Part shown: positions 16,770 to 58,540 of the stretch, piece by piece
Numbering within the stretch: the first letter of the stretch is position 1
Layout: each line of letters begins with the position of its first letter
NCBI GenBank assembly: GCA_034780895.1
Contig: JAUZTB010000094.1
Location: forward strand, 2,965,297-3,029,296
Source: Rhynchobatus australiae
Lineage: Eukaryota
Direction of reading: 5' to 3'
Length of the DNA: 64,000 nt
The notes under the pieces: generated by a model
The model's input: the letters and a program-made list of their open reading frames with translations, nothing else
What the model was told of the DNA's origin: nothing
Database searches by the model: none
Position numbers and translations under genes: made by a program

Positions 16770-17459
16770 TCACTGGGTGGTAAATCTCCCAGCTGTTGCA
16801 GTGGGTGTGGGGGTCATAGCTGTCATGGAGGTCATGGGGGTCATGGGAGTCATGGGAGTCATCATTCCCATCTTCACTTGGTTGCGGAGATTTGCATTCT
16901 GCTCCAAAAGGAGCTCATTGGTGGCCATCAGGTTTGACACCTGTTTTTGGAGATCCTCAACGCGCTTTTGGAGCATGAGATTCTCTTCCTTCAGAAACCG
17001 GTAGTCAGCTGCGCCTGGATTTTGCATGCCGTAGTCGTATACTTCGAACCCCATGCCCTCCATCCTCCTCCTCTTCATGTGGGCGTCGTAGCCATCGTAG
17101 TGGTCAGCGTCATAACCTCTAGAGTAGAGGTCATCATAGCGGTCATATCTGCGTGCCAAGGGAGAAAACACTTGGCTGTGCGCCATACCTTGGTTTTCAT
17201 AACCATACTCGTCGCGCTTTACGTGCAGGAATTTACATTTGGGCCCTCTTTGACAGTCACCCTTTTGATAGTCGTGGCAGATCGGAATCTCACCTTTATT
17301 AACGGGTAGATCAGAAGATAAAAGGCCAAGGGTGGACATCTCATTAGCGTCTGGGTGGCGGAACTTGCAGCGCTTACCGCGGTTGCAGACGTTGCGCAGG
17401 AAGTCACGGCAAATATCATCTGTACTGGGGCCAGCCTCCTCGGTGCCGTTATCTGGCAT
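16770..17459 (-). CDS. zc3h10: ZC3H10-like CCCH zinc-finger protein, copy A (229 aa; 2 CCCH fingers, basic motif, coiled coil, short MTP-repeat tail)
   Basis: Open 229-aa frame with ICRDFLRNVCNRGKRCKFRHP (ZC3H10 finger-1 type), ICHDYQKGDCQRGPKCKFLH (finger-3 type), KRRRMEG and LKEENLMLQKRVEDLQKQVSNLMATNELLLEQNA, matching the ZC3H10 coiled coil as recalled. Pyrimidine tract and AG acceptor 48 nt upstream of the ATG. The symbol denotes family (paralog), not proven orthology. Confidence 0.9.
   Translation of the reverse strand: MPDNGTEEAGPSTDDICRDFLRNVCNRGKRCKFRHPDANEMSTLGLLSSDLPVNKGEIPICHDYQKGDCQRGPKCKFLHVKRDEYGYENQGMAHSQVFSPLARRYDRYDDLYSRGYDADHYDGYDAHMKRRRMEGMGFEVYDYGMQNPGAADYRFLKEENLMLQKRVEDLQKQVSNLMATNELLLEQNANLRNQVKMGMMTPMTPMTPMTSMTAMTPTPTATAGRFTTQ
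16809..16862 (-). repeat. Coding 9-bp tandem repeat (6 x ATGACNNCN; MTP/MTS/MTA)
   Basis: Plus strand gtcat recurs every 9 nt; translates MTPMTPMTPMTSMTAMTP. Confidence 0.9.
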
Positions 17460-17530: not shown

Positions 17531-18844
17531 GTCTTTACAGAGAATGAGCGATTGTTTACAAAGTAACTGCTGCGCATTCCATAAAACATTGAAATTAGAG
17601 TGGCCGCAGTAGCAAAATTAAGTGACAGTTAGCAAAGAAATCTGTGCAATATCTTTGCTTGCACAAGGAAAAAAAAACATAAGTCACATATGAATGTCAG
17701 ATCCATAAGTGAGGTGCGCGCAAAAAATGTGCTCTGCGTTTTCAGGATCATGAAGTTTTCCCAACTTCTTTTTCCAGTTATGTGGGCCATGCCAGAACAG
17801 ATCACTTCCTGATGTGCCATTATAACATTTCTTTAAAATGTATTCAGGAGGTAATCATGAAAATGTATGCAATAAAAAGTATGATCTCCAAACAATGCCA
17901 GCCTAGCTCACAACTTACACAACTAGCCTAGCTAAAGCAGTACTCATTTCACTTGCGAAGGAAAAATTTCACCAGCATGAACTCTATTCACAGGTTCACT
18001 ACTGAGCTAGCCTGTAATAACTGGGACTAACGCATGCGCTTCCATGGAAATCAGCATTAGGCTTCAACAAGAGCAACATGACCTCAAAAATGTGACTGTA
18101 GACTTCAAGCAACTGCAAGTTTTTTCCATTAGAATGCGAAGATTAGCTCAAACAAGATACTTCAGGTAGTTCTGAGCCAAGCATATCAAACAGCCAAAAC
18201 CAGACATTTGTTTCCATGATTGCAAGTTTGACCTTCCATTCATTTAATTCTGCAGACTATTTTCATCCAAAGGTGGGGCATTAGTTTTTTGTTAAAGAGT
18301 TATCATTTCCTAACGATGCAATAGTAAACGTTTGCACTTCAAAGTATGTGATAACTTCTGTACTTGCTATACGAGTTACAGCAATGTAACACTTCCTGGA
18401 TTGTCCACTTCAATTTACTACGTTTTCCACACAAGGCCACTAGGCCTCCACTTTCTTCGTCGGGAAACAATACACGTGAATACAAAACCAAATCCTCAAT
18501 CAAAAAGTGCAAACTGTTGGGAGTAATAAGAGCTAGTCAAAAAGGTTAAAACAAACAAGAGAACGAACACATTTAGAATACTACTCACTCCTTCAAATAT
18601 ATAGGAGTAAATATCCAAACACACATACCTTCCCTCACACTCCAAATGGAGTAACTGAGCACAAAGAACTGCAATTCTAGTCTTCCGTGAAAGATTAAAC
18701 GGAACCAAAACATTTTTGAAAGTACAAGCAATAAGTGTGTAAAAAATATCAAACAGTATTCTTTGCCCCTCCCCCACACAAAAGGCTGGTTGTATCCTGC
18801 GTGCCACGCAACCAAATAACGCACTTTATTCGATGGTGGATTTC

Positions 18845-19603
18845 ATCTTTTATGGTTTATATTTTTCTAGCGATATATTTGAGGAGCATGAATCAATCCC
18901 TCCGGACTCCAGCTGTTTGCANNNNNNNNNNNNNNNNNNNNNNNNNNNNNNNNNNNNNNNNNNNNNNNNNNNNNNNNNNNNNNNNNNNNNNNNNNNNNNN
19001 NNNNNNNNNNNNNNNNNNNNNNNNNNNNNNNNNNNNNNNNNNNNNNNNNNNNNNNNNNNNNNNNNNNNNNNNNNNNNNNNNNNNNNNNNNNNNNNNNNNN
19101 NNNNNNNNNNNNNNNNNNNNNNNNNNNNNNNNNNNNNNNNNNNNNNNNNNNNNNNNNNNNNNNNNNNNNNNNNNNNNNNNNNNNNNNNNNNNNNNNNNNN
19201 NNNNNNNNNNNNNNNNNNNNNNNNNNNNNNNNNNNNNNNNNNNNNNNNNNNNNNNNNNNNNNNNNNNNNNNNNNNNNNNNNNNNNNNNNNNNNNNNNNNN
19301 NNNNNNNNNNNNNNNNNNNNNNNNNNNNNNNNNNNNNNNNNNNNNNNNNNNNNNNNNNNNNNNNNNNNNNNNNNNNNNNNNNNNNNNNNNNNNNNNNNNN
19401 NNNNNNNNNNNNNNNNNNNNNNNNNNNNNNNNNNNNNNNNNNNNNNNNNNNNNNNNNNNNNNNNNNNNNNNNNNNNNNNNNNNNNNNNNNNNNNNNNNNN
19501 NNNNNNNNNNNNNNNNNNNNNNNNNNGAAAAATGCAAAGACATCGCTTTTGACAGCCCAAATCAAAATAGCAAAAAAACAAACCCAATTGGAATATGCGT
19601 CAC
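18845..19603. repeat. Unresolved duplicated element, copy 1 (77-bp flanks around a 605-N gap)
   Basis: 18845-18921 is identical to 39172-39248, and 19527-19603 is identical to 39747-39823. Confidence 0.9.
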
Positions 19604-20899
19604 TCCTAGTGACCGCAATGGTCATTCTAATATTGAGAGGATTGTAGTGACTCCCATCTTCACATTATTAAAAATCAAGATTTCATTCAGTAAATTTTAA
19701 CATTTGCCACTTTAACGCAGTGCAAGCAGTAGCACGTTAAAACTTTTCCCACATTCACACAACGTGGTGCTTCTATATCCAGTGCCTAAATGGCAGTGAA
19801 ACCAAATAAGACCTCTTACAAAGGCAATAACATCCTTATTTATGGACTACTATCTTTCCACAATACTAAACTGTAGATCACTCATTTTCCATTGGTGTTT
19901 ATTTCAAGCTTTTTCTTAAAAAAAGTTTCTATGGTCTTTAAAATTCACAAGCAAATAAAAAGGCAGTAACTGTGTAGTCATTTGAATTGATTGGTTTCAT
20001 GCCCATCACATATAATGAAAAGGTCCATCTATATCACCTCATCTTTTCTATGGCATATAACCTTTCCCAATACCTGCTATCACCACCTCTATCCCATCTG
20101 TTGTGTATGTTCTTAGGAACAGCATGCTGTGAGCAGAACAACAAAACAGTATTCCCCTCTTCCCCACCCCCCCCCCCAAATAAGGCAGTCCTAAAAGCAA
20201 CATCCCTTAGATTCTCAAGTTTTCAACACTATGTCATGTAATTGAAATATAGAACATAGAAAAGTACATCACAGGAATAGGTCCTTTGGCCCACGATGTC
20301 TGTGCCAACCATGATGCCAATCTAAACTAATCACATATGCCTGTGCATGGTCTATATCCCTCAATTCCCTGCCTGGTCATATTCCTCAAAATTTCCAATC
20401 CCCCCCAAAACTTGAACCAATTTGACAAAGATTTAAGTTATTTATCTTAATATCCTCCTAGACAGCCTGGCATCAATGCTCCTATACCTGTCCTGTGAAC
20501 CACCATTCTCATTTTCATCTCAGGGATGCAATCTGAAACATAATTCATACTCAAGTCTTAGAATTTTATCAGACTATGTACACATGGATTCCAAAATGGA
20601 TCAAATGCACACAAATGCAGAGGAATACTTCCTAAATTTTATTCAATACCCAAAATAGGCATTAAATGTCTTCAGAACTTCTGTGCAGACACTGGGGCTG
20701 GGATGCTGCTCTCGTGTCCTCAACCACTTGTGGTATGATGACAATTTAGTTCATGTAATGGAGCAAAACTGTTGTGCAGGAAGGACAAAAAGTAGGTAAC
20801 ACCATCAAAAGTGTCCTTATTATTTAGAACTTCCCAACCAATAGCCACAACATATATAGATAATACGGGATGTATTTTCCACAATTATTCACAGGTTTA

Positions 20900-31385: not shown

Positions 31386-32810
31386 GAGAAACGGAGAAAG
31401 TGATACACAAGAGAGCGAGAGAGAGAATCAGTTAAGGGTTGGCAGACACCTAATAAATCTGGTTTTGGCAGAATCACAAATATCATAGCACCAGTTGACT
31501 TTCAAAGATATAACCATAAGAAAATGCTTACATAGGTGAGGGACAAAGAACCAAATTAAATGTTGTAATAACTATAAAAAATGGGCATTAGAATTTTCAA
31601 ACTTTAATATTTTACCCACCAAAGTGAAAAAGAACTTGAGCTAGGATGAGGAATAGCGAAGAGTAATTAAAATATTTATCATGTTGACAGTTGAAGTATA
31701 TTAAGGCTGTGTGTTTCAAAGAAATTAACTTCCATGAGAAAAGACAACCCCTCAAATCCAATTTTAAATAACCAAAACTACAAGGTGGTGTAAAATAATT
31801 TTTCCAATCATTTCTTTCCACTATAATGATAAATGATAATAAATCCTAATTGTATCACTGAGTGAGTTAGAAAGAGAAATCACAGTTGCACTGAGAATCA
31901 ATATATCATGTAGAAGGTGGTTTAAATCACTTAAATATATCTGGATGTTCAGCATTACATTACCAGTAACATGACAGATTGCAACACTAATATCCCTAAA
32001 TCCTTTCTGATCTCTACAAGAACACTTCTACATTAGTTGCCATATGCAAATTGACATTCTCAAGCAATCTATTCGCCCTTACATTTAACAGGTAACATTT
32101 CTGTGCATAACTGAAAGCAACAGACCATTCATTTAAGCAACAAGTAGATTCCAAAATTTCAGAATGGTTTAAGAAAATTCACAGATACATTCATTATGCT
32201 TCCTCATTTCAGAAAAACAGAAAACATCAGAATTTTGAACAAAAGCACAATAAATATTTTTGGGCAACAGTCTGCAAGACATCTCAGGAAACGTCGTTGC
32301 TATTGGCAGTTCCATCGTTGCCAATGCTGAGTAAATGATCCATACCTGATGATGAGCAATGCACAACTCAATGAAAACTGCCCTTCTACAGAACAGCAAC
32401 CGGAAACAGTCACAACTTTGTACCAATGCTAAAGGTATTCATCAATTGTCTAGAAGTGTAATTAATGCAGTGAGCAGAGTTTTGCATTACAACATATTCC
32501 AATGTTACCATTCAGGTTGTTAAATTAATCAATATAAAAGTTTGGCAGACAAAAGCTATTTCATAGCGAGCATGTGTTGGTAAAGCATATTACATTCACA
32601 ATAAGCTTCATTTATAAACATCTGTCCAAACAAAGAATTCTACAGGAATACCTGCTGAGGTCAAAATGAAACCGGGGTCTATTTGATGTAACAAAGTATA
32701 ATAATAAAGTGCTGGGTCTTAATCATATTCTCAGATTAGCATTCCCTGCTGTTGCTGAGAGAAGTATATTCCACTTGTTTCCACAATGTGGAGGCCAACA
32801 TTTCCACTGC

Positions 32811-33300
32811 CATTTGTTAGCAGAAGTGTGCATTTTGCTCCAGGTCTGACACTTGTGTGGCGTTCTCAATTGCGATTTCACAGGATAAGGTTTTTGCAAA
32901 AGTATTAGGAATCAACTGGATATGAACTCAGGATGCATCATTCCCATCCAGATGTGGATCACTCTTTGTCTCGATAGACACCTACTCATCAAGGAAAAAG
33001 CACTGGATAACTGTACATGCTTTCCACATTGTGATTTTCACCACACCTACAAGTTTCTATCTGCAATTTACATCTGATCACTGGCATCCAACCTTCTGTC
33101 AGTCACGGCAGACTGGAATCCAGCATTTAAGACGTAGGTCATCGAAAAAAAAGCCAAGCTCAAAACTTATTAGACTTTGGATGGCGGAACTTGCAGCGCT
33201 TGCCGCAGGTGCAGAAGTTGCGCATGACTTCTTGGCAAATATCAGTGCTATTGGTAGTCACGTTGTTGCCAGTGTTGACTACATGATCTGTACCTGACAT
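32811..33300 (-). pseudogene. ZC3H10-like pseudogene, copy B
   Basis: ATG at 33300 with the same leader and acceptor as copies A and C. First finger reads ICQEVMRNFCTCGKRCKFRHP, then a stop at 33162-33160. Downstream remnants IPVCRD*QKVGCQ* (finger-3 homolog) and QVSDL/EQNA (coiled-coil homolog, ~32811-32858) carry stops and indels. Confidence 0.85.
33160..33300 (-). CDS. Residual 46-aa single-CCCH micro-ORF within copy B (expression unknown)
   Basis: Manual translation: MSGTDHVVNTGNNVTTNSTDICQEVMRNFCTCGKRCKFRHPKSNKF*. C-x7-C-x5-C-x3-H spacing is intact. Below the ORF-track length cutoff. Confidence 0.35.
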   Translation of the reverse strand: MSGTDHVVNTGNNVTTNSTDICQEVMRNFCTCGKRCKFRHPKSNKF

Positions 33301-38290: not shown

Positions 38291-39171
38291 AAGTAACTTT
38301 AATTTTGTGTGAGGACTCACAAAACAGATGCAATTGGCAGAAACTCGCTTTGATGTTAACTGAATCTGGCTTCTCTTGTGGACAGGGCTATTTTCCAGTG
38401 TGATTTTTCTAAACTAAAATGAAAGATTACAGAATGGAAATTTGCAACACAGAAAACTGCATATGAAGTTTCTCAATTTTGGCACTAGCATGGCTGATTT
38501 GCAAGCAAAAAGTATACCTCGAAGTGTTAAGTTTATTTACCTCAGTCACCAAAGTTACCAGAAAACAGTGGGACTATAATAGATGGCTAAACACTCCCAG
38601 AGTACAAGGACAACAGGAAATGTACATTTTAAACATTCACTTTCCCTTCAACATTAGGGAAGAAAAGTTAAGTTCAGAGCTGCACGGCGTAGTTATAACA
38701 GCTGAAGGTGAGTGGATTATAAAACAAACATGTGAAAAAGTGCTTTATCTCAAAGAATTAAACCCTTTATATAAGTAACAGACTTGTATTGTCTGTCTCT
38801 TGATCTACAAGTCTGTGACACAAAGAGAGAAAAAAGGCAACAGAGTGGTAGGTAGAGTGGATAAGAAACGGAGAGAAACCGAATGAATTACAACAATTTT
38901 TCTAAAAAATGAGCAACGCCAAAGGAAATCATAGAAGCTGATAAAATGCTCCCATTCTAAAAATTTCAACAATGGGTTATTGGGACCTTCACTTTCGGTC
39001 TCTGACGCCCAACTATCGCACACTCCGCTCCTCGATCACCTAACACCCAGTCCCACCCGGCGACGGTCCATTACTCCAATACATGGTATTTCGGAAGTGG
39101 CCTCTCGGAAAATAAATTGCATCCGAAAATCAGTAAATAGACGGAGTTAAACCCCATTATTTATAATTCTG

Positions 39172-39823
39172 ATCTTTTATGGTTTATATTTTTCTAGCGA
39201 TATATTTGAGGAGCATGAATCAATCCCTCCGGACTCCAGCTGTTTGCANNNNNNNNNNNNNNNNNNNNNNNNNNNNNNNNNNNNNNNNNNNNNNNNNNNN
39301 NNNNNNNNNNNNNNNNNNNNNNNNNNNNNNNNNNNNNNNNNNNNNNNNNNNNNNNNNNNNNNNNNNNNNNNNNNNNNNNNNNNNNNNNNNNNNNNNNNNN
39401 NNNNNNNNNNNNNNNNNNNNNNNNNNNNNNNNNNNNNNNNNNNNNNNNNNNNNNNNNNNNNNNNNNNNNNNNNNNNNNNNNNNNNNNNNNNNNNNNNNNN
39501 NNNNNNNNNNNNNNNNNNNNNNNNNNNNNNNNNNNNNNNNNNNNNNNNNNNNNNNNNNNNNNNNNNNNNNNNNNNNNNNNNNNNNNNNNNNNNNNNNNNN
39601 NNNNNNNNNNNNNNNNNNNNNNNNNNNNNNNNNNNNNNNNNNNNNNNNNNNNNNNNNNNNNNNNNNNNNNNNNNNNNNNNNNNNNNNNNNNNNNNNNNNN
39701 NNNNNNNNNNNNNNNNNNNNNNNNNNNNNNNNNNNNNNNNNNNNNNGAAAAATGCAAAGACATCGCTTTTGACAGCCCAAATCAAAATAGCAAAAAAACA
39801 AACCCAATTGGAATATGCGTCAC
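39172..39823. repeat. Unresolved duplicated element, copy 2 (77-bp flanks around a 498-N gap)
   Basis: Identical flanks to 18845-19603 in the same orientation; similarity stops abruptly outside them. Confidence 0.9.
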
Positions 39824-40399
39824 CGCTCGTGTGACTACCTATCTCTATTGTAACAGAAGTTTTAGTGCACAGAACAGAAATGCTGGGTATTTTTAAAATG
39901 CTGACAGATTAGAAACTGTTGATGTTCAAAGGAACTTTGCTGCTCTTGTATACAACATAAGAACTAGAAGTCTCAGAACAAGGAGTACCCTTTAGTACGA
40001 AAACGAGAAGAAATATCTTCATTTGTAGGGTTTTGGACGCGCAGTCGTTGTGTTCATTCAAAACAGATCGATAGATTTCAAGATCATAAGTGAATACATC
40101 AAAACTGATAATCCGCTGTCCAACTATTCAGAAATCCCGATGGTTCGGCTTCTAATCCACCAGGTAACGTTTGTCGCTCTACGTTTTCACTCACTGAGGC
40201 CCTGATTCTCCTGTCCTCTCTTTCATTCACTGGGCTGCAGTTCCTTTGCTCCCACTCACTGGGGCCCCGGTTCCTGGGGTCCCTTTCAATTTACCTGATT
40301 CCCTGGAAAATTTTAGTACTGTGTAACATCTTTAAAAACTGAATTGAAAGAGTGTTGAGATAATTAATAGATATCACATCCAGTAGTACAGAAATCCTC

Positions 40400-53000: not shown

Positions 53001-53824
53001 TTAATTAGAAAATAATATTACATGCAGCCCAATGGAGAAACACAATTAAAGATACATGTCTTCCAAGTCCACTTGGCTCCTTCAAAAAGAATGTGAACTC
53101 ACCATTTCTGGTCCTGAATCAGTTTTAATCCCAACAATACACGTGACAACACCACTGTACATTCATTTTAATATATAGTTTGTAGTATTTACACAGTGTT
53201 CACCAACTGTACCAACTAGAGGGTACCAACAGTAAACATTTGCAGATTCTCAATAAATGATAACTTTTCATAAACATCAGACATCATTGACAGTTGGTAT
53301 CTACAATAATAACTTATCAGTTCAAAAATGGACAAAATGGGTTTATGGGGCCTTTGAAACACATCTTGAATTGCTTTAGATTTTGGAATTTTTGGCAGCA
53401 ATTAACTAATCTTGGAAGTTGGCCACTATGTTGTGAAATTTCAGGGATTCTCAAAACAGTAAAGTTTTACCTGTATTTTAAGACCAAGGTTTACCGAAGA
53501 CTCATGTGCCAAATTTCTCACTGTTGGTGTTGGCCCTATAAATACTTCCCCACAAAGAGCATTTTCAATACTGCTCACTGACTGATAGAAATCTCACCAT
53601 CNNNNNNNNNNNNNNNNNNNNNNNNNNNNNNNNNNNNNNNNNNNNNNNNNNNNNNNNNNNNNNNNNNNNNNNNNNNNNNNNNNNNNNNNNNNNNNNNNNN
53701 NCTAACATTTTTACTTTTATTTTTCTTATTATCATAAGTAGTTATTAATAAAGTAGTTTTTAACACTTATACATGACTTGGTATGTTTCTTTTGTTGCTG
53801 GTTCATAACACCTATCTGCCACTC

Positions 53825-53997
53825 CAATTATTGACTCTCCTACAAACAAAAGATTACCCTTTGTCTTCTGCTCCCATTCAACAGCCTTATACTCAATCCT
53901 GCTTGCAAAGAAATCTATCTGTCATTGCAATTATTGACTCACGCAAACACAAGATTACCCTTTTGTCTTCTGCTTGCACTCAACAACCTTCTACTCA
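53825..53997. repeat. Imperfect direct repeat, 2 x ~70 bp
   Basis: caattattgactc...caaacaaaagattaccctttgtcttctgct...tcaaca.cctt.tactca at ~53825 and ~53928. Confidence 0.8.
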
Positions 53998-56824: not shown

Positions 56825-58471
56825 TCAACTCTCCTCTGCACGACAGAGGAACCTCATACTCTGTGATGCATTTGGATAACTGACCATTTGAGTGGTGGTA
56901 TAACTCATGGCAATGCCTGGGAGCGATTGCGTAACTGCCACTGGTGCAACTGAGATGGCAATTGGTGCTATTGAAACTGGTGAAGCCATCCCCTGGGCAT
57001 AAGGTGTAGAGAGAGCAGCACTAAGATGGGGTGGACTTTGGGATGTAGCTTCAGAACACAAAGCATTATGAGCTCTAGCTTGCGCTATTAATTCTTGATG
57101 AGAAATAGGCTGTGATCTCAAGGTCTGGTTGCTAAGAGTGGTGTGAGTCTCCACTATGCTATGATTATAATTGGCAAGAGTGTGCATAGTTGGTGGTTGT
57201 GATGGATCATTTCCTGTGGTCAGGATGCCCAGCTTCACTTGCTTGCGTAGATCAGCATTTTGTTCCAGAAGAACCTCATTTGTAATCATTAGGCTTGACA
57301 CCTGCTTCTTAAGCTCTTCATTGCGCTTTCTGAGCATATGGTTTTCCTCTTCCAGAAAACTCATTTCAACTGGACGCAGATTGGACGTACTGTAATCAAA
57401 TACTTCAAACCGCAGGCCCTCCATTCTTTTTCTTTTTGGATTTTGATCATAATCACATTTCTCAGTCTCATACAGGTCATCCAAACGGTCATATCTGCAG
57501 ATCTCAGGAGAAGCTTCTCTATTTTGTGACAATTTTTCTGTGCTTTTCTTATCGTTGTCATCACGTTTCAAGTGCTGGAATTTACACTTGGACCCTCTTC
57601 GACATTTGCCTTTTAGAAAGTCACGGCAGAATGGGACTTCCTTTGTAATAAGAGGCAAATTAGAGGGTGAAAGCCCAAAAGTCACAGCCACTGTCTTTTG
57701 CAAGTGGGCAGGAAGCTTTCCTGTTTTATTGTAATAATTCTCTTCACCCTTTGTCCCGTGAATGAACGTGCAGTTCTCACGGGTGCATTTGCTATTCTGA
57801 AAGTACTGACAAAAGATAGACTCATGCCGCATATCACCTACATCATAGGCTTCAACATTGTCCGGGTGAAAGTACCTGCAATTCTTACCACGACTGCAGA
57901 CATTGCGCAGAAAGTCTCGACAAACATTCCGTTTGCTCTTGCTAGCGTCATGTTTGCTATTATTGACTAAATTATCAGCATCATTACTTAGGTCAGCATG
58001 GTTGGAGACCTCAATATCATCTGGGTGAAAATATCTGCAATTCTTACCACGATTGCAGAGATTGCGCAGAAAGTCTCGGCAAATGTTCAGTTTGCTTTTG
58101 CCAGCCTCATCATTGCCAACGTTGACTAAATTATCAATGTCGTTCCTTATGTCAGCGAGTTCAGAAGCCTCAATGTCATCTGGATGGAAATACCTGCAAT
58201 TCTTACCACGGCTGCAGACATTGCGCAGAAAGTCTCGGCAAATGTTCTGTTTGTTTTTACCAGCTTCATCGTTAGCAATGTTGACTAAATTATCAGTGTC
58301 GTTCCTTATGTCGGCAAGGTCGGAGGCCTCAACATTGTCGGGGTGGAAGTACCTGCAATTCTTACCACGGGTGCAGACATTGCGCAGAAAGTCTCGGCAA
58401 ACATTCCGTTTGCTCTTGCCAGGCTCATATTTGCTGCTGTTGACTAAATTATCAGTGTCGTTCTCGGACAT
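56825..58471 (-). CDS. zc3h10: ZC3H10-like CCCH zinc-finger protein, copy C (548 aa; 4x finger 1, finger 2, finger 3, coiled coil, S/T/P/A-rich C-terminus)
   Basis: Open 548-aa frame: four CRDFLRNxCxRGKNCRYFH fingers, FCQYFQNSKCTRENCTFIHG, FCRDFLKGKCRRGSKCKFQH, PKRKRMEG, LEEENHMLRKRNEELKKQVSSLMITNEVLLEQNA, and C-terminal TTQMVSYPNASQSMR typical of ZC3H10. Acceptor AG at 58521-58520. Confidence 0.93.
   Translation of the reverse strand: MSENDTDNLVNSSKYEPGKSKRNVCRDFLRNVCTRGKNCRYFHPDNVEASDLADIRNDTDNLVNIANDEAGKNKQNICRDFLRNVCSRGKNCRYFHPDDIEASELADIRNDIDNLVNVGNDEAGKSKLNICRDFLRNLCNRGKNCRYFHPDDIEVSNHADLSNDADNLVNNSKHDASKSKRNVCRDFLRNVCSRGKNCRYFHPDNVEAYDVGDMRHESIFCQYFQNSKCTRENCTFIHGTKGEENYYNKTGKLPAHLQKTVAVTFGLSPSNLPLITKEVPFCRDFLKGKCRRGSKCKFQHLKRDDNDKKSTEKLSQNREASPEICRYDRLDDLYETEKCDYDQNPKRKRMEGLRFEVFDYSTSNLRPVEMSFLEEENHMLRKRNEELKKQVSSLMITNEVLLEQNADLRKQVKLGILTTGNDPSQPPTMHTLANYNHSIVETHTTLSNQTLRSQPISHQELIAQARAHNALCSEATSQSPPHLSAALSTPYAQGMASPVSIAPIAISVAPVAVTQSLPGIAMSYTTTQMVSYPNASQSMRFLCRAEES
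57827..58462 (-). repeat. Coding tandem repeat, 4 x 159 bp (53 aa), each with one CCCH finger
   Basis: Motif ttgactaaattatca recurs at ~57963, 58122, 58281 and 58440 (period 159). Peptide unit NDxDNLVN...CRDFLRNxCxRGKNCRYFHPD. Confidence 0.95.
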
Positions 58472-58540
58472 GCTTCCAGATTATTTCTGCGCTACTCAGC
58501 CAAGGCTCTCAATAAACAACTGTAAAAGAAAAAGAAGCCA
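58472..58540 (-). promoter_or_regulatory. Splice acceptor and 48-nt leader of copy C exon
   Basis: Minus strand ttctttttcttttacag|ttgttt...gcgcagaaataatct...ATG, sharing ccttggct and agcgcagaaataatct with copy A. Confidence 0.8.

Follow-up and report, generated by a model that had tools for sequence, protein, structure and literature searches.

The DNA of Rhynchobatus australiae analysed here carries a six-finger CCCH zinc-finger gene of ZC3H10 type that is real, old, conserved and apparently unstudied. It is a paralogue of ZC3H10 and not the canonical orthologue, because the canonical gene is kept beside it in the same species, and it belongs to one elasmobranch clade of proteins with four position-specific units of finger 1. 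An earlier note on this DNA had described the fourfold array; that the gene is a separate paralogue within a tandem ZC3H10 cluster, that it is conserved throughout elasmobranchs and that its linkers too are constrained had been missed. The window below means the whole 64,000-nucleotide stretch analysed (assembly GCA_034780895.1, contig JAUZTB010000094.1, positions 2,965,297 to 3,029,296), and positions are counted from its first letter.

Results

A six-finger protein in one unbroken frame

On the minus strand, an unbroken frame runs from the ATG at 58471 to the stop at 56825 and encodes 548 amino acids (P0001), with six CCCH fingers of types 1, 2 and 3 in that order, finger 1 being present four times (Table 1). 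The frame opens with four in-frame units of 159 bp, or 53 codons (58462-57827), which TRF recovers with a period of 159, 3.8 copies, 83% matches and 0% indels (57864-58463); frame and repeat together confirm the four 53-residue units of the earlier note. By type each copy is a finger 1, and none is a finger 2 or a finger 3. In all of them the zinc ligands, RDFLRN and RGKNCRYFHPD are unvarying, KRNVC and DNVEA are common to units 1 and 4, and NDEAGK, NIC and DDIE to units 2 and 3, every one of these motifs being present as first described.

The protein also has, at the sequence level, the traits of the ZC3H10 family: a basic cluster, then a coiled-coil or bZIP-like segment, and the C-terminal motif. 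The PKRKR cluster is likely to be a nuclear localisation signal, and such a signal has been mapped in human ZC3H10 according to the available part of PMC13375009. The Pfam bZIP_1 match is weak (E 0.019, under the cut-off). Finger 2 carries Q-Y behind its first Cys, where the ZC3H10 family has H-D almost without exception; the Q-Y is present in 18 of 18 aligned orthologues. Fingers have a net charge of +3 to +4 and linkers of -3 to -5. In the AlphaFold model the fingers fold locally and the linkers are of low confidence (pTM 0.23); neither AlphaFold nor Foldseek supported compact finger pairs (pTM 0.23 and 0.33, low global confidence; no match at E<=0.001). Histidine methylation of the repeats by CARNMT1 was considered and dropped: the paper gives no consensus and lists human ZC3H10 finger 2, and nothing was inferred from it. 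Downstream of the gene, at 53812-53997 and beside an N gap, lies a two-copy 102-bp tandem repeat.

Table 1 Features of the ZC3H10-type genes in the window
Feature	Position	Strand	Remarks
Two-finger ZC3H10 paralogue (fingers 1 and 3, coiled coil)	16770..17459	-	229 aa, intact
Decayed two-finger-type ZC3H10 copy	33081..33300	-	stops and frame changes; same acceptor context
Coiled-coil / bZIP-like segment	57230..57361	-	approximately aa 371-414
Basic cluster PKRKR	57425..57439	-	aligns with KRRR of canonical ZC3H10
Finger 3	57572..57628	-	C282-H300
Finger 2	57758..57811	-	C221-H238
Unit 4 (A type)	57827..57985	-	finger 1d at 57922-57866; ancestral place, ahead of finger 2
Unit 3 (B type)	57986..58144	-	finger 1c at 58081-58025
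Unit 2 (B type)	58145..58303	-	finger 1b at 58240-58184
Unit 1 (A type)	58304..58462	-	finger 1a at 58399-58343
Untranslated start of coding exon (48 nt)	58472..58519	-	predicted splice acceptor AG at 58521-58520

A tandem ZC3H10 cluster

The species with the six-finger protein also carry a canonical gene of 397-401 amino acids, in neighbouring accessions and on contigs of equal size, and the accession of a two-finger protein likewise neighbours those of the six-finger and canonical proteins, again with contigs of equal size. The cluster is made up, in tandem, of the canonical three-finger gene, the six-finger gene, a decayed copy and the two-finger gene. Within the 64-kb window the canonical gene is absent, and in R. 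australiae it is expected to sit beyond 64000.

The two-finger paralogue is without finger 2 and without the proline-rich tail, ends in a C-terminal MTP-type repeat and has orthologues in sharks, rays and Callorhinchus. Its conservation (98.7% identity between P0156 and P0240 of Heptranchias, 72% to Callorhinchus) is above that of canonical ZC3H10. In Callorhinchus a single scaffold carries the canonical gene together with two two-finger genes, and the decayed copy may correspond by position to the 248-aa gene of that species. A 76-base fragment at 32274-32349 resembles the start of the decayed copy.

Both the two-finger and the decayed copy lie on the strand of the six-finger gene with a similar acceptor, and the 48-nt untranslated exon start of the six-finger gene resembles theirs. 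This similar upstream exon context, the neighbouring position of the genes and a coil conserved among all three cluster members would suit a paralogue that chiefly modulates canonical ZC3H10 by coiled-coil pairing, its extra fingers being secondary, and the two-finger paralogue might pair with canonical ZC3H10 likewise. We hold such a role to be decidedly unlikely as the main one, however, as it leaves unexplained the near-invariance of all four fingers and of the linkers specific to each position.

A 16-nucleotide stretch at 58493-58478, in the untranslated start of the six-finger gene, is found identically at 17483-17468 in the two-finger paralogue, in both cases on the minus strand. Its first seven bases are one mismatch from the published ZC3H10 RNA motif (AGUGCAG / GCAGCG in the accessible text of PMC11612968), and the F-L-R codons of each unit contain the complement of nine bases of the stretch. 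A part in autoregulation is possible, and folding lends it no statistical support. Pairing of the 5' untranslated stretch with the finger codons was rejected: unit 1 is paired in the minimum-energy and centroid folds, but the z-score is +0.42, and in the two-finger paralogue the pairing is absent (z +0.92).

Several further copies and repeats were seen beside these. Cartilaginous fishes have, on another contig, an additional ZC3H10-like gene with two fingers and 300-329 aa (P0163, P0164, P0166, P0168, P0178 and P0179), so that finger 2 was lost at least two times in the ZC3H10 family. Rhinoraja longicauda has two near-identical canonical-type copies of 397 aa on the contig of the cluster (P0009 and P0012), a recent further duplication. 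In the window, two N gaps (18922-19526 and 39249-39746) have flanks with almost the same translation (18735-19700 and 39151-39908), and hence one repeat, or a duplicated block, borders both gaps.

Four units across sharks, rays and skates

Among the proteins listed, four units are present in 16 of 18 named species of shark, ray and skate, and three Logan proteins also have four; the main protein cluster had 15 of its 19 members among the matches listed. The named species span squalomorph and galeomorph sharks as well as batoids, three of these placements having been confirmed by look-up. The best five matches of the 548-aa protein are elasmobranch proteins of 512-557 aa that cover 92-100% of the query at 86-91% identity; three-finger ZC3H10 comes next at approximately 50% identity, and no entry of the protein collection searched is identical to the query. 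In a run search with the non-repeated coding part, no RNA run stood among the matches listed; two runs that were aligned may be RNA and are not taken as evidence of expression.

The assembly from which the window was taken has gaps (19 N runs), which might suggest an assembly artefact or a non-functional repeat. Yet the units differ from each other at 25-40 of 159 bases, orthologues of 545-557 aa are predicted in independent assemblies and the gene is under purifying selection, all of which makes this reading vanishingly improbable. Misassembly, against which the earlier note had cautioned, is excluded by the four units in 16 named species. The contig of sequencing run X21 reaches 720 bases past 57826 where a four-unit model up to the acceptor needs 693, a fit that is not decisive.

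Departures from this pattern were few. The Pristis pectinata protein (P0127) has three units, most of unit 2 being absent; the junction at which its unit 1 passes into unit 2 lies between codons 43 and 48, and unequal crossing-over or an assembly collapse would produce such a join. In Hemiscyllium ocellatum two models of 180 and 335 aa (P0134 and P0136) break within unit 4, by either a real disruption or an assembly error. Given one three-unit lineage and one split gene, four units may not be essential. In three skate-like Logan proteins (P0006, P0137 and P0138) a shift of frame close to residue 503 is followed by an end at 512 aa. The X21 contig has a one-base gap at the matching place as well as a seven-base gap (window 56964 and 56900); the tail may have been lost in one lineage.

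In a gene tree of 36 proteins all 11 six-finger rows form one group (support 100/100) whose stem measures 0.61 changes per column. The R. australiae protein is sister to that of Pristis (98/90), a placement that by itself points to a rhinopristiform ray. Canonical rows form a group of their own (97/92), with the six-finger rows outside it. The six-finger group is joined to the two-finger genes (96/94), a joining made uncertain by long branches, which would place the split before the holocephalan divergence. Protein searches found no six-finger protein in Callorhinchus or other holocephalans, which may reflect loss, absence or missing annotation. When proteins with a ZC3H10-type coil were fetched (368), 297 had three fingers, 21 had six, one had five (Pristis) and one had four; the 21 are 20 members of the elasmobranch orthogroup and P0345. 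The four-finger protein P0276, in which fingers 1 and 2 are exactly duplicated and fused to other domains, was set aside as a likely gene-model artefact.

An old array held by purifying selection

Unit comparisons between species were made on 68 units from 17 four-unit proteins. Pristiophorus, whose unit 4 carries a 10-residue insert, and the three-unit Pristis were left out, as was a pair of nearly identical Logan proteins that are duplicates. Units at the same position differ between species by 4.0-7.7 aa, and units at different positions within a species by 10.9-20.2 aa. Across the shark/batoid divide the nearest unit is the one at the same position in 67 of the 68 cases, so the A-B-B-A arrangement predates the shark-ray split. 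The available part of bioRxiv 10.1101/2025.02.26.637739 dates that split to 265-349 million years.

The A-B-B-A pattern itself stands in part. Of eleven DNA sites that divide the units two against two, eight set 1+4 against 2+3, two pair 1+2 and one pairs 1+3. Half of the eight, namely four, are silent changes at third positions, and this speaks for shared descent more than for convergence. The pattern is confined to approximately codons 10-44, however, and past codon 45 the alike pair is units 1 and 2. Over the full 159 bases, pairs 1-2, 1-3, 1-4 and 2-3 differ at 25-28 positions and pairs 2-4 and 3-4 at 38-40.

Selection was compared between the units of R. australiae, whose mean synonymous distance is approximately 0.66. 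The ratio pN/pS is 0.08 in the fingers (codon bootstrap 0-0.25) and 0.38 in the linkers (0.20-0.66), which supports purifying selection on the fingers and on the linkers as well. The finger cores are thus constrained, as had been proposed, and for the finger overall the lack of synonymous excess that would have refuted this was not observed. That the linkers diverge was overstated: 12 of 32 linker codons keep one residue across all four units. In the non-repeated coding part, 21 differences in run X2 comprise 15 synonymous and 6 non-synonymous ones among those listed, 40 of the 159 rows of the table (ratio 0.12, p 3e-6).

Along the unit the distribution of silent change is uneven. In codons 23-36 (e.g. 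58396-58355) twelve consecutive residue-invariant codons are also base-invariant in all units, and codons 37-42 all vary (permutation p 0.0007); taken alone, codons 23-36 show no synonymous excess. This synonymous freeze may reflect either repeated short conversion or a constraint at the nucleotide level.

These observations bear on whether the array might be young and unstable, undergoing unequal crossing-over or concerted evolution and varying between individuals. The near absence of synonymous change between units at codons 23-36, the three units of Pristis with their junction between units 1 and 2, and a cross-position distance within species slightly below that of permuted data (14.87 vs 15.28, p 0.0002, kinship ignored) could be read in this way. 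Against it stand the synonymous distance between units, the position identity kept across the shark/ray divide and the four units in most named species, and we regard an array of this kind as extremely unlikely. Units more alike within than between species, the sign of concerted evolution, were not found; there is a slight within-lineage excess, visible for instance as T44 in several Scyliorhinus units, and later exchange between units is small.

A-B-B-A alone can be obtained by three single-unit duplications, with no exchange required. A rooted tree of 32 units from eight species places units 1 and 4 together (94/89), and rooting on unit 1 or unit 4 is not rejected (AU p 0.115 and 0.088). Canonical ZC3H10 has N-D-E-A-G and I as the B units do, and the A residues therefore look derived. 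One ancient, non-adjacent exchange between units is favoured, with units 2 and 3 as what we infer to be the youngest pair. The unequal crossing-over or conversion put forward in the earlier note is in this sense retained, but as a mostly ancient process, the units being position-specific.

On the stem lineage of the six-finger gene, then, finger 1 and its linker were multiplied to four units and finger 2 was altered. In the history that we propose, units 1 and 4 would have come to share the derived K11, Y12 and V21 before the shark-ray split, by one block duplication and deletion or by a single conversion event in which unit 4 overwrote unit 1. Across sharks, skates and rays purifying selection afterwards held the arrangement nearly fixed, with occasional local exchange only.

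The cluster probably lies on the elasmobranch X

Human ZC3H10 is located at 12q13, and read-through gene models join ZC3H10 to ERBB3-, PA2G4- and ESYT1-type domains. For the comparison of contigs, common species names were matched to Latin ones in what we take to be the correct way. The shark X is given as homologous to part of human chromosome 12 in the part of the literature available.

Contig sizes agree with this synteny. The Narcine contig with the six-finger, canonical and two-finger genes measures 103,180,129 bases, which is the length given for the X-homologous chr12 of Narcine in the accessible portion of 10.1101/2025.02.26.637739. The Scyliorhinus torazame (S. torazame) contig with the gene is 46.26 Mb, and the published X, as far as its source is available, is 46 Mb. 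Seven of ten contigs from the non-myliobatiform, non-Narcine species of that preprint fall within the X range of 16.4-28.8 Mb stated in its available text, and those of 8.1, 12.2 and 37.8 Mb fall outside it; three of these ten sizes belong to the canonical gene. Contigs of 69.7 and 73.1 Mb fit the stingray range of 45.0-73.0 Mb in the same available text. The X-homologous chromosomes of Narcine and of stingrays are fusions.

Indirect as these indications are, they make it likely that the ZC3H10 cluster lies on the elasmobranch X chromosome. X linkage is carried over from the ancestral position and by itself implies no role in sex. No ZC3H10 entry was found in the supplements of PMC12318234, PMC11406177, PMC10620051, PMC13100897 and PMC12952989, and the available text of PMC12318234 describes elasmobranch X genes as having no chromosome-wide dosage compensation. 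One could imagine a multivalent RNA reader, X-linked and specific to elasmobranchs, that would act in sex-biased development through an uncompensated dose of one versus two, the cluster regulating itself through the ZC3H10-like motif in the shared 5' untranslated exon, which would also pair with the frozen finger-1 codons; as a whole we consider this very unlikely.

A proposed avidity of the repeated finger 1

The reading that we prefer, with moderate confidence, is of a nuclear, probably self-associating RNA binder in which the repeated finger 1 would provide avidity for spaced GC sites, with targets unlike those of ZC3H10. The protein would enter the nucleus through its basic signal, and its coiled coil would probably give self-association. 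The four finger-1 copies would be separate basic beads on acidic, flexible tethers of 34 residues, each keeping the residues that touch a GC step in related fingers. Together, they would bind RNAs with several spaced GC-containing motifs of ZC3H10 type more tightly or more selectively than the three-finger protein does, and the outcome would be a target set new relative to ZC3H10. Multivalent RNA binding by the repeated finger 1, as the earlier note had suggested, is plausible.

The positions matching MBNL1 R186, R190, R195 and R201 are arginine in 68, 68, 68 and 67 of the 68 units, and the position matching F202 is aromatic in all of them. In mammalian ZC3H10, fingers 1 and 2 bind RNA and both are needed, according to the available part of PMC6911170, citing Treiber 2017. 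Because this binding requires the two fingers jointly and copies 1a-1c lack a finger-2 partner, these copies on their own may have little or no RNA binding.

The repeated fingers could instead bind DNA or chromatin, or make contacts with proteins, for instance in a repressor reading repeated short promoter motifs. In the accessible text of PMC13375009, ZC3H10 acts on DNA with all its fingers, the human protein binds TTTC in interferon-stimulated promoters and repression needs each finger and the coil; R231 and S268, which by alignment match the critical R89 and the p38 site S126, are invariant in the orthologues. On the other side, the available part of PMC6911170 has mammalian ZC3H10 acting on DNA via its bZIP part with the fingers dispensable for DNA binding, and the best solved relatives by sequence, MBNL1 and CPSF4, are RNA binders. 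We judge a function of this kind unlikely, and keep to avidity for RNA as the preferred reading.

Discussion

ZC3H10 has three fingers in nearly all cases, and there is dispute over what these fingers read in mammals, be it RNA, DNA or both. A paralogue in which only finger 1 is multiplied and finger 2 is altered, frozen for at least 265 million years, offers a natural test of finger 1 and of avidity by number; together with the two-finger neighbour and the three-unit Pristis form it provides a finger-number series of 2, 3, 5 and 6. It is also a clean example of a coding repeat that ceased homogenising. The gene is probably an X-linked, lineage-specific regulator, in a group in which X dose is believed to determine sex. 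The weight of the finding is limited in that the domain-number variant is present already in automatic annotation and its function is a prediction from sequence.

Comparison with known systems

The closest known entries are RefSeq predictions called 'zinc finger CCCH domain-containing protein 10-like' (among them XP_067832662.1, XP_043537837.1 and XP_069761837.1), orthologues of 545-557 aa with four units and 86-95% identity; they are automatic predictions under a generic name, and a literature search that covered few subscription papers found no paper on a six-finger elasmobranch ZC3H10.

Canonical ZC3H10, with three fingers, a nuclear localisation signal, a coil and a proline-rich tail, shares with the six-finger protein the finger order 1-2-3, the basic cluster, the coil and the C-terminal motif, at approximately 55% identity from unit 4 onward. 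The six-finger protein differs from it in the four copies of finger 1, in the change of KRGKRC to (N/T/S)RGKNC and in that of H-D to Q-Y in finger 2.

Among solved structures, those of MBNL1/2 come closest in sequence (3d2q, E 3.8e-7), and their RNA-contact positions are kept in the six-finger protein. Several fingers on flexible tethers, as a route to multivalent binding of GC motifs, would be a further likeness, in working only. The MBNL fingers form two compact pairs of CX7CX6CX3H and CX7CX4CX3H, a spacing that the six-finger protein does not have; its finger 1 is CX7CX5CX3H, repeated singly and accompanied by the coil that marks ZC3H10. It is no MBNL member, though it may work in a similar way.

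The distant ZC3H10-type protein P0345 resembles the elasmobranch protein in having six fingers and a ZC3H10-type coil, but there the pair of finger 1 and finger 2 is present three times, and not finger 1 alone. Finger expansion has thus occurred independently in the wider ZC3H10 family.
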